Shown one piece after another: positions 39,047 to 39,677 of a stretch of DNA of 64,000 bases; position 1 is the stretch's first letter, and each line of letters opens with the position of its first letter. The notes below the pieces were generated by a model. It searched no databases and had not been told where the DNA came from. It saw only the letters and a program-made list of their open reading frames with translations. A program made the position numbers and the translations under genes. Source of the DNA: an uncultured Eubacteriales bacterium. Its GTDB lineage: Bacteria > Bacillota > Clostridia > Lachnospirales > Anaerotignaceae. The stretch lies in assembly GCA_934256695.1 (NCBI GenBank), contig CAKQPE010000001.1:3502-67501 (forward strand). The letters run 5' to 3'.

Positions 39047-39677
39047 AAATAAAAATTTATCAAACTGAAAGACCTTGTGGCGTTGCCCCAATACCCCACG
39101 ATTTTTTGAAAAAAATCGAGTAAAACTTTTATCAAAACGCAATTACATTGCGTTTTTCGGAACAAAATTATAAGTTGTGTTATTGAGATTTGATTTTCTA
39201 AATCTTTATCGAATAAAATCTCTCTTGCATTGATTTTAAAATGTAAATCCTGTATCTGTTGCCCTAAACATTGCATAGCCTATTTCCGGAGGCACATGGA
39301 ATGTGCGGTCTTAAAGAGATTTTTGAAGGTGCAGGGAACTTTTTTAAAAAAGTTCCTGCAAATCCCACTTTTCCATTTGGAAAAAATTAAATTTAATTCT
39401 TTTTATTAAAACTTTGATTAAAGGATTTACCCCTCATCCGTTTCGCTTCGCTCAACACCTTCTCCAAAGGAGAAGGCTTTAAAACCCTTCCGTTAAACCT
39501 TCGGTTTGCCACCTTCCCTTTCAGGGACGGCTTATTATTGGCAATTTAATACTTAGTCCCAAAATACCGTGACTTTGTCACGGTATTTTACTAAAAGTTT
39601 CGCTTGAGCCTTTTCAAAGGCTCACAGGTGTGGACGGAGTCCACGGTTTTAATCAGTCCGATAAATTTATATTTATC
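39047..39677 (+). repeat. Mosaic hairpin element, complete long form, copy R9 (archetype)
   Basis: Left end: outer AAAAATAAAAATTTATCAAACTGAAAGACC, degenerate hp1 39075..39091, hp2 39099..39118, AGTAAAACTTTT and AAAACGCAATTACATTGCGTTTTT. The core runs through CCCCTCATCC, CCTTCTCC-AAAG-GAGAAGG, AAACCTTCGGTTT and CAGGGACGGCTTATTATTGGCAAT. Right end: AAAATACCGTGACTTTGTCACGGTATTTT, ACTAAAAGTTT, hp2 39606..39623, hp1 GTGGACGGAGTCCAC 39630..39644 and outer GATAAATTTATATTTATC. Fills the gap between two convergent stop codons. Confidence 0.88.

Follow-up and report, generated by a model that had tools for sequence, protein, structure and literature searches.

What fills the space between two convergent genes when the filling holds no gene of its own? 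We ask this of positions 39047-39677 of a 64-kb stretch of DNA (the window) from an uncultured human-gut Clostridium with the sporulation genes bofA and DUF2508, a stretch that covers the dnaA region. This segment, hereafter the archetype, exactly fills the gap from the stop codon of a DUF6487 zinc-ribbon open reading frame (ORF; 38807-39046, +) to that of oppF (39690-40622, -), and it contains short ORFs only and no Pfam-bearing gene. A first-pass annotation of the window, made by reading the letters, had described it as one of 13 copies of a nested, hairpin-only mosaic of a single architecture. We find that the family is real, dispersed across species, and present in strain-dependent alleles, and we assign a probability of about 0.6 to the reading that the archetype is a composite copy of non-autonomous, non-coding hairpin-module mobile repeats that would grow by hairpin-targeted insertion and subsequently be reshuffled by recombination.

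The recurrence of the family is far above chance. The pattern TTTGAAAA-N10-AAACTTT matches 20 times in the window, where 0.14 matches are expected. A repeat search returned the modules of the first-pass annotation as families with several copies each. We modelled the end module (AAGACC, hairpin hp1, a linker, hairpin hp2, and AGTAAAACTTTT) as a covariance model, R1, trained on 17 copies and searched with filters off; it returned 19 copies in the window at 59-89 bits, with at least one at every one of the 13 loci, together with a decayed copy at 21861-21931, and none in a control of 872 kb of unrelated viral contigs. Repeated DNA amounts to 5.3 kb by self-BLAST, or ~5.0 kb without a histidine-codon repeat, in agreement with the hand-counted 5 kb or ~8% of the window. 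Element sizes range from 92 to 717 nt, and both end modules are found at only six loci, the remainder being half elements.

The single architecture needs to be qualified. The loci do share the R1 module, but the mosaic is built of at least four separable module families that are shuffled between strains: the R1 end module, the D1 core, the CCCCTCATC GC module, and D8, a miniature transposable element with inverted repeats (MITE). The outer A/T palindrome that was thought to open each element occurs at only three loci (31476, 39047, and 58392). The right end does mirror the left in architecture, though not in sequence, as hp1, hp2, and hp3 are usually different variants at the two ends. Likewise, a hairpin directly follows all 19 R1 modules, but the A-run/stem/T-run form ascribed to each of these hp3 hairpins (A4-stem-T4) is seen in only 14 of them. 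Related copies of the 214-nt module D8 at 60604-60853 and 62070-62334, as well as a small repeated terminator-like hairpin at 36814-36875, had been overlooked.

Within the archetype, two AT-rich terminal inverted repeats (TIRs; 22-28 nt) each enclose an R1 module and hp3, and the D1 core and the GC module lie between (Table 1). Its end follows the formula GATAAATATAAATTTATC-C(A/G)(A/G)ACTGA-AAGACC-hp1, and its left TIR is found again at 31476 and at 58392/58620-58644. D1 is present in three copies (31581-31871, 39154-39444, and 55927-56217; identity 93% and 76%), and the GC module recurs at 1-183 (inverted), 31871-31950, 50740-50900, and 56217-56317. The centre of D1, ~130 nt (39240-39370, 31667-31797, and 56013-56143), is near-invariant in all three copies, spans the palindrome TGCAGGGAACTTTTTT/AAAAAAGTTCCTGCA, and has a frame of 68-71 codons that is open in all three. 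We considered whether either terminal hairpin could be a target-site duplication. For hp1 this is ruled out by loops that are reverse complements of one another at the two ends, and the inverted hp1 copies are therefore part of the element; for the AT hairpin it is ruled out by an orientation that is constant relative to every end.

The hairpins are strict DNA-type palindromes, not RNA-type helices with wobble pairs, because their pairing is near-exclusively Watson-Crick with almost no G:T. Among 112 distinct modules and 15 modelled pairs, pairing holds in 98.2% of cells, and in 214 of them both sides are changed (1513 Watson-Crick, 2 G:T, and 12 A:C); one example pair of hp1 is CG in 37 modules, UA in 22, AU in 11, and GC in 9. 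No shuffle and no slid register approaches the observed pairing. Loops and linkers are near-invariant, and stems are copy-specific. We dropped the wobble asymmetry as evidence of RNA structure, 2 G:T versus 12 A:C being too few.

The family is dispersed, as the first-pass annotation had supposed, and it extends well beyond the window species. A genome-collection search with an exact 25-mer of the R1 module, the AT-rich box TTTGAAAAAAATNNAGTAAAACTTT, gave at least 106 stretches, which belong to many genomes of Oscillospirales, the matches listed including Anaerotruncus, Angelakisella, Ca. Faecivivens, Avoscillospira, Merdivicinus, Gallacutalibacter, Negativibacillus, and Acutalibacteraceae. The GC content of these loci runs from 28 to 63%, with the box identical throughout. 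R1 detects 121 modules across 100 of these loci, and 83 in 294 kb of strain contigs of the window species. In the other species, hp1 and one to five further hairpins, hp0 (TTTCG-stem-TGCG-stem-CG), stand before the box, and the sequence downstream is species-specific. In Avoscillospira-like genomes (L016, L026, L028, L037, L070, L100, and L102; we cite contigs and loci by L-numbers), the one to five hp0 hairpins form tandem arrays with a period of ~25 nt upstream of hp1-hp2, in which flanks and the TGCG loop are common to all units and the stem differs in each; these arrays resemble hairpin repeats of variable number.

To judge by Rfam and the searchable literature, the element family is undescribed. 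An Rfam scan of the window at the gathering threshold yields only three riboswitches, none at the elements, and permissive scans of 38950-39750 (best E 0.3) and 50340-51100 (best E 0.37) stay far from threshold; literature searches by sequence strings and keywords return no description of the hairpin family, and a plasmid collection gives no match for the archetype or for D8. Correia elements of Neisseria and BOX/RUP of Streptococcus pneumoniae are similar in being short, non-coding, and modular (boxA-B-C), with inverted ends, strong folds beside genes, possible terminator or promoter roles, and a transposase that acts in trans or is unknown. We infer no sequence relation, setting them apart by their descriptions only: Correia elements measure 100-155 bp with 26-bp TIRs and a TA duplication, whereas the elements here measure 92-717 nt, no TA duplication is evident at the flanks of the archetype, the prevailing processes are nesting into hairpins and the shuffling of modules, and the family extends across a whole bacterial order. 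Palindrome-associated transposable elements (PATEs), derived from IS200/IS605, share subterminal hairpins and a lack of coding capacity; they have asymmetric ends, hairpins on one strand, and no TIRs, so that the likeness to PATEs once proposed fails because the ends here are inverted repeats of at least 22 nt bearing mirror-image modules.

Comparison with 16 contigs of the window species, 98-99% identical to the window, reveals that the elements turn over. At eight gaps that can be compared, the alleles differ and the flanking genes are near-identical. The gap between the abhydrolase gene (abh) and argS has four alleles among the window and ten other strains, comprising a solo 31-nt palindrome in L122 (AAAGACC-GTGGGAC-TCT-GTCCCAC-GGTCTTT) and, in other strains, two different full elements, one of them found in both orientations. 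The argS/parA gap holds a solo hairpin, AAAACC-TTGGGGCAAAACCCCAA-GGCCTT, in seven of ten strains and three different full elements in the window, L119, and L121; the L119 element replaces the solo hairpin, and no duplication is seen. A different family member occupies the mnmE/jag site in L005 and L006, and in L004 and L005 the inner 187-189 nt of the rsmG/GntR element are inverted between inverted hp1 copies. Nesting, too, is directly visible: at three loci, and in some strains only, a 63-66-nt branched hairpin, unit X (AGGGAACCGCAAAG...TTCCTGACCAAG), stands in the hp2 tetraloop in place of TCA, in either orientation and with internal stems that vary by compensatory changes.

The strains differ in further ways. 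These include deletions of 30 and 58 nt at 1..445; alleles of 476-597 nt at 26820, which differ in a 26-nt hairpin, X in hp2, and a second hp1; alleles of 247 or ~600 nt at 30374; a different 573-nt allele of 31476 in three strains; and single 17- and 26-nt hairpins and a 367-nt block (bounded by AAAATTGAG repeats) that have direct repeats of 3-9 nt on either side and are carried by some strains only. At the archetype itself all strain contigs stop inside the element: oppF-bearing metagenome contigs end 85-180 nt past the oppF stop, as the multi-copy repeat breaks assembly. These contigs retain oppF's own terminator, which the window strain has lost, and have the same AT-rich end as the window with a different hp1 and hp2; in L114, for example, the right TIR of the archetype leads into hp1 GTGGGAC and hp2 CGATTT, unlike the window. 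The family is thus highly dynamic, combining insertion into hairpins with inversion, deletion, and cassette exchange. Two larger replacements also occur. In L001 (7140-9830, ~window 2250-3240), a restriction-modification cassette (helix-turn-helix (HTH), N6_N4 methyltransferase, and RE_MjaI) takes the place of GntR between ilvD and rsmG, with an hp1-like hairpin, TTAAGACCTTGGGGCTTTGC, at the junction; in L125 (1-3440, ~window 14.5-17.7 kb), prophage-type genes (XkdX, holin, NlpC/P60, Dam methylase, and HTH) stand where other strains have recF, a parB-like gene, and EamA.

Which enzyme might drive such insertion is suggested by D8, a module of 209-214 nt with three copies in the window and one more in the strains, of which copies A and B are 99% identical. 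Its TIRs are CAGACTGTAGACAAAG and, as reverse complement, GAGGGTGTCGACAAAG. Each of the three window copies is flanked by a hairpin of its own in direct duplication of 20-29 nt; as the same hairpin stands in direct orientation on both sides, the target hairpin was duplicated whole. For copy B, which has a DNA fold with z = -11.4, the target was formerly a canonical bidirectional terminator, AAAAGGCACTCAAAGTAAGATTTGAGTGCCTTT. Hairpin duplication around D8-type elements is also seen in L044, L098, and L050. The TIR motifs CAGnnTGTnGAnAAAG and CAGnnTGTCGAAAAAG each adjoin terminator-like hairpins in many other species, and in Ca. Faecivivens a MITE of ~260 nt is bounded by CAGnnTGTCGAAAAAG, carries hp1-hp2-AT box in its centre, and has duplicated hairpins.

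A scan of viral contigs with the TIR motif recovered an intact 1.6-kb insertion sequence (IS), L159:198-1791, with the ends [hairpin]CAGACTGTCGAAAAAGTCCAGCC on the left and GGGGTTTTTCTACGGTCTG[hairpin] on the right; CAGACTGTAGACAAAG and the reverse complement of the right end of this element, CAGACCGTAGAAAAAC, agree in 13 of 16 positions. Its transposase (496 amino acids) belongs to the IS1182 family (NF033551, E 7e-122; Pfam DUF772 and DDE_Tnp_1_6), and its relatives include PGAP-annotated IS1182-family elements in Thermocaproicibacter, a copy of which has the same end with an adjoining hairpin, and matches in Subdoligranulum, both Oscillospiraceae. A metagenome scan added 14 intact IS1182-family copies, which, like L247, carry CAGnnTGTCGAAAAAG: 25 of their 28 ends adjoin a strong hairpin, compared with 36 of 280 random sites, and at those 25 ends the foot of the hairpin lies 0-1 nt from the TIR. 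Whole-hairpin direct duplications of 24-30 nt are found in three of the 14, the flanking hairpins of L250-L270 are nearly all of the form AG...CT, and the copy in L263, from another gut metagenome, directly follows CCTTCTCC..GGAGAAGG and TGTCA..TGACG hairpins, types that are present in the GC module of the window. To judge by its TIRs and hairpin footprint, D8 is a true MITE derived from the IS1182 family. The view that no named family can be assigned therefore survives for R1, which remains unmatched, but not for D8 and the Faecivivens element, whose TIRs are those of intact IS1182-family elements from Oscillospiraceae and gut metagenomes.

The assignment gives the behaviour of the mosaic a precedent. 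IS1272 and TnSha1, IS1182-family elements of staphylococci, take hairpins and terminators as insertion targets and show no primary-sequence specificity (PMC4923244), and targeting here is likewise of hairpins and not of primary sequence. In the model of Wan et al., attack on an extruded cruciform leaves the target stem-loop removed, duplicated whole, or loop-duplicated, depending on the position of strand joining (PMC5678879); all three predicted outcomes are seen here. There are also differences: for IS1272 the stem-loop was reported to be deleted without duplication, whereas whole-hairpin duplication is common here; the MITE derivatives here are nested in long hairpin-only arrays that make up ~8% of the DNA; and the intact IS1182 copies have no counterpart of the main end module (hp1, hp2, and AT box).

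We propose that the modules use DNA hairpins already in place, both gene terminators and hairpins left by earlier insertions, as sites at or within which they insert, and that targeting would depend on structure (a cruciform), as described for IS1182-family DDE transposases. The position of strand joining would set the outcome, with the target hairpin left beside the insert, duplicated whole, or its loop replaced. Recombination among the many copies may then invert segments between inverted hp1 copies, collapse elements to a solo hairpin, and exchange hairpin cassettes anchored on the conserved linkers, with the transposase presumably supplied in trans from a gene outside the window. The archetype's own ends, we infer, may have been moved by the same kind of enzyme as D8. 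Two sequence features make this link suggestive only: CAAACTGAAAGACC at the end of the archetype matches the TIR of D8 copy C, CAAACTGTAGAC, at 11 of 13 positions with one indel and in the same orientation, and recurs in L076; and the layout of TIR plus terminal hairpin parallels the left end of L159, where the TIR is joined to GTCCAGC..GCTGGGC.

Several observations weigh against this proposal. The likeness of CAAACTGAAAGACC to CAAACTGTAGAC is short and was found after the fact, and the TIRs of ISKpn6, also of the IS1182 family, are unrelated to these ends. Neither the window nor 1.1 Mb of loci that come from the window species or bear modules yielded an IS1182-family transposase, and the R1 module is present in none of 31 IS1182-bearing loci, so that co-occurrence of the two in one genome lacks support. 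For R1-type elements, neither a clean empty site nor a target duplication was recovered, and the two hp1 copies at the borders of a full element are inverted and have loops that are reverse complements, being part of the element and not a target duplication. Variants of hp2 and hp3 are drawn from a small pool, and much of the variation may therefore stem from recombination alone. In nine of the 14 intact IS copies (among L250-L270), the left and right flanking hairpins are unrelated, which the published model leaves unexplained; insertion at a junction of two hairpins or the carrying along of a donor hairpin would fit as candidate accounts. Finally, and against a terminator role of the elements, a simple terminator scan flagged just one terminator in the region.

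As the first-pass annotation had it, there is no transposase, integrase, or Y1 gene among the larger ORFs of the window (by Pfam and the gene tables of strain contigs), an IS1182-family gene is lacking in ~100 kb of the window species, and no IS with archetype ends was found among the 31 IS1182-bearing loci and the module loci. Clustering the ORFs of the 106 loci for enriched neighbour proteins returned only ABC ATPases and spurious read-throughs of repeats. Candidates for an autonomous element were set aside: the two modules of L067, which lie 2.5 kb from each other, have ordinary genes between them, and L050 is without a transposase. ISKpn6 was likewise dropped as a guide to IS1182 ends, having unrelated TIRs and a transposase without a match in the collected loci.

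The hp1-hp2-AT-box module may, as a tentative possibility, not ride passively on IS1182-type elements but be the recognition unit of a separate, undescribed system of hairpin-dependent propagation conserved across Oscillospirales; copy-specific Watson-Crick stems, invariant loops and linkers, and a 25-nt box identical at 28-63% GC point that way. If true, such a system would add, swap, and flip cassettes and, together with cruciform-targeting transposition, yield self-attracting, fractal hairpin arrays that reach ~8% of the genome.

An unlikely alternative places the family with the repetitive extragenic palindromes (REPs) and bacterial interspersed mosaic elements (BIMEs) that Enterobacteria and Pseudomonas carry: hp1 (and, in relatives, hp0) would be a REP-like unit, recognised in the form of a single-stranded DNA hairpin by a REP-associated tyrosine transposase (RAYT) with one gene elsewhere in the genome, the arrays would be a BIME-like mosaic, and the IS1182-type MITEs would simply land on these hairpins. 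The architectural analogy, proposed at the outset, is fair. REP/BIME units are small palindromes in variant forms, in alternating orientation, with few linkers; they are extragenic, often at gene 3' ends, number hundreds per genome, and serve as IS landing sites, REPs being known targets of IS elements (PMC1525189). The conserved linkers, the strictly Watson-Crick pairing with almost no G:T, and the tandem arrays of one to five hp0 units with different stems in Avoscillospira-like genomes would all suit such a system, as would a RAYT-like Y1_Tnp gene in the module-bearing locus L093, an uncultured Oscillospiraceae metagenome-assembled genome (MAG), BRZ_BM_bin16. That gene (L093:2373-2969(-), Pfam Y1_Tnp 27.3 bits, with HVH and YYEH motifs) was the one match of a phmmer search with E. 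coli RayT against 1.1 Mb; its reading frame runs through a pair of REP-like hairpins in inverted orientation, GTAGGGCGGGAC-CTATGT-GTCCCGCC, which lie on either side of the HUH-coding part and have a stem resembling hp1 GTGGGAC..GTCCCAC.

However, L093 belongs to another species, GTAG hairpins were seen in other species only, and one RAYT-like gene per 106 sampled loci is about the chance level; no Y1 gene is present in the window or the strain contigs, nor any RAYT in the window-species DNA examined. In 17 of 17 aligned copies, (A)A(G/A)ACC and not the conserved GTAG-type tetranucleotide of REPs lies directly 5' of hp1. The elements here also differ in their long TIRs and 200-300-nt cores, and in a Gram-positive-type host, Clostridium. 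GTAG hairpins of the L093 type also end composite repeats in the related MAGs L028, L100, and L110.

At least six of eight convergent gaps in the window hold an element, as against only three of seven divergent gaps, and the claim that elements fill the space between convergent stops holds for the archetype as well as for 2979-3235 between GntR and rsmG. As a side effect of the proposed insertions, the elements probably act as terminators for convergent genes, since the end module, to go by its sequence, brings a hairpin of the A-run/stem/T-run type into place immediately downstream of a neighbouring gene. Another explanation is that the elements are not mobile but are cis cassettes selected by the host: structured 3' untranslated regions or terminators, or terminator-plus-promoter modules with the AT box as promoter or protein-binding site. 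At oppF the element may stand in for the terminator that other strains keep. The identity of the AT-rich box across genomes of 28-63% GC, the terminator form of hp3 in 14 of 19 modules, and a readable TTGAAA-N17/18-TAnnnT in the box would further agree with such cassettes. We nonetheless consider cis cassettes quite unlikely as the origin of the family. Module orientation is inconsistent towards neighbouring genes, and 118 modules in other species show no bias for a downstream gene, for which reason we dropped the AT box as a promoter; facing pairs would aim promoters head-on at terminators; scarcity of G:U is atypical for RNA structure; Rfam gives no match; and presence, absence, inversion, and replacement vary between near-identical strains at housekeeping loci. 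An effect on a neighbouring gene is seen in the peptidase S51 ORF (29708-30430), which reads through hp1 and has its stop codon, a TGA, within the hp2 loop (TTTTGAAAA), so that the element encodes the C-terminus; the products in strains measure 235-240 amino acids.

A mosaic assembled without a dedicated enzyme, its palindromes arising and spreading as hairpin-rich spacers undergo replication slippage, template switching, and ectopic gene conversion, would account for the 17- and 26-nt hairpins and the 367-nt block that come and go with direct repeats of 3-9 nt at their edges, for inversions between 29-nt inverted repeats, and for cassette swaps between conserved linkers. Taken as the sole process it is highly unlikely, as it leaves unexplained why D8 copies that are 99% identical stand at unlinked loci between flanking hairpins that are unrelated, why one and the same box recurs in dozens of species that differ widely in GC content, and why the defined TIRs are common to transposase-encoding elements. 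Scarcely credible are invertible switches (invertons), in which a site-specific invertase flips the segment bounded by inverted hp1 copies and so regulates neighbouring genes: both orientations of the inner segment do occur at two of the eight gaps compared, but the window has no invertase or recombinase gene, copy number is far too high and many elements are halves, one of the inverted sites lies between convergent genes and is not expected to have a promoter effect there, and 29-nt inverted repeats may recombine without a dedicated enzyme. The AAAACC...GGTTTT around hp1 may bear a loose resemblance to the core of hix sites (hixC).

Under the preferred reading of hairpin-targeted insertion and recombination, the behaviour of the family fits known kinds, namely MITEs of a hairpin-targeting IS family within a BIME-like mosaic. 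The hairpin repeats are an unusual variant of known selfish DNA and not a new class, and we claim neither a new enzyme class nor the demonstration of a new principle. The family nevertheless offers numerous independent natural cases in which transposition is directed at DNA structure and not at sequence, including duplication of a whole terminator hairpin, an outcome that the IS1272 model predicts (PMC5678879) and that its authors did not report for IS1272. It suggests a concrete and testable route to BIME-like mosaics, whereby hairpin-targeting elements pile into nested hairpin-only arrays because each insertion makes new targets. Most convergent gene gaps of this uncultured human-gut Clostridium are filled in this way, and many Oscillospirales, a major gut order, carry the elements as well. 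For the host, gene terminators are replaced or supplemented and the C-terminus of at least one protein is changed; for those who study it, the elements break metagenome assemblies and could serve as strain markers because they vary between strains that are 98-99% identical.

Table 1. Modules of the archetype, further family copies in the window, and D8 copies.
Feature	Position	Strand	Description
Left TIR	39047..39068	+	AT-rich, hairpin-like AAATAAAAATTTATC, then AAACTGA; pairs with 39653-39674 (22 nt, 86% complementary)
Left R1 module	39069..39131	+	R1 match 39067-39131, 77.9 bits; AAGACC (39069-74), hp1 TTGTGGCGTTGCCCCAA (39075-91), linker TACCCCA, hp2 CGATTTTTTGAAAAAAATCG (39099-118), linker AGTAAAACTTTT (39119-30)
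hp3	39134..39157		AAAACGCAATTACATTGCGTTTTT; A-run/stem/T-run, like a bidirectional intrinsic terminator; variant found 9 times in the window
D1 core	39158..39429	+	chain of small hairpins; perfect palindrome TGCAGGGAACTTTTTT/AAAAAAGTTCCTGCA at 39330-39360
GC module	39430..39531	+	CCCCTCATC ... CACCTTCTCC-AAAG-GAGAAGG ... CAGGGACGGC
hp3'	39561..39589		AAAATACCGTGACTTTGTCACGGTATTTT; terminator-like both ways; arms 13/13 complementary; -17 kcal/mol
Right R1 module	39590..39652	-	R1 match 39592-39652, 59.4 bits; on the minus strand AAAACC, hp1 GTGGACTCCGTCCAC (39630-44), ACCTG, hp2 TGAGCCTTTGAAAAGGCTCA (39605-24), AGCGAAACTTTT
Right TIR	39653..39677	-	TCAGTCC and AT hairpin GATAAATTTATATTTATC; pairs with left TIR
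Copy truncated by window start	1..445		two inverted GC modules and right end module; R1 match 385-448
Complete copy	2979..3235		fills GntR/rsmG gap; inverted hp1 copies (TTGGGG...) at borders; R1 3007-3071(+), 3174-3238(-)
Complete copy	7341..7580		mnmE/jag gap; R1 7350-7413(+), 7510-7574(-)
Complete copy	19421..19701		abhydrolase gene/argS gap; outer 29-nt inverted repeats with hp1 GTGGGAC; R1 match
Copy	21558..21928		argS/parA gap; R1 match
Half copy	26820..27033		right end module; R1 26968-27032
Single end module and hp3	30374..30480	+	R1 30374-30438
Copy without right end	31476..31966	+	left TIR, end module, D1 core, GC module
Single end module and hp3	47709..47800	-	R1 47739-47802
Complete copy	50363..51079		D8 MITE (50455-50663) nested in hp3; R1 50363-50426(+), 51016-51079(-)
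Copy	55840..56317	+	end module, D1 core, GC module; R1 match
Complete short copy	58392..58644		both AT-rich TIRs; R1 58409-58473(+), 58557-58621(-)
D8 copy A	50455-50663		in hp3 of the 50363 element; hairpin CCTATGAC..GTCATAGG directly duplicated on both sides
D8 copy C	60605..60814	-	flanking hairpin AAACCCATAACAAA..TGTTATGGGTTT
D8 copy B	62097..62306	+	flanked on both sides by terminator hairpin GGCACTCAAAG(T/C)AAGATTTGAGT(G/A)CC, 26-27-nt direct duplication

Some gaps of the window are free of the family. Three riboswitches exceed the Rfam gathering thresholds, a cobalamin riboswitch at 44949-45134(-) upstream of an opp-like ABC operon, a glycine riboswitch at 38405-38501(-) upstream of a Na/alanine symporter gene, and a thiamine pyrophosphate (TPP) riboswitch at 58237-58335(-) upstream of an ABC transporter gene, and the divergent gaps that hold them are without a hairpin element. 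The same is true of the rpmH/dnaA gap in the replication-origin region (10200-13000), which has rpmH, rnpA, yidC, jag, mnmE, mnmG, and rsmG on one side and dnaA, dnaN, and recF on the other, and near which, at 12-13 kb, the cumulative GC skew turns. The terminator around D8 copy B, GCACTC-N12-GAGTGC, bears a superficial likeness to the CIRCE operator (TTAGCACTC-N9-GAGTGCTAA), although spacing and flanks differ and the likeness is probably a coincidence. An 18-nt periodic, CATG/CGTG-rich coding repeat at 63560-63777, within a nickel-insertion gene (LarC-like, PF01969; 63052-63996(-)), probably encodes a His-rich linker and has no relation to the hairpin family.

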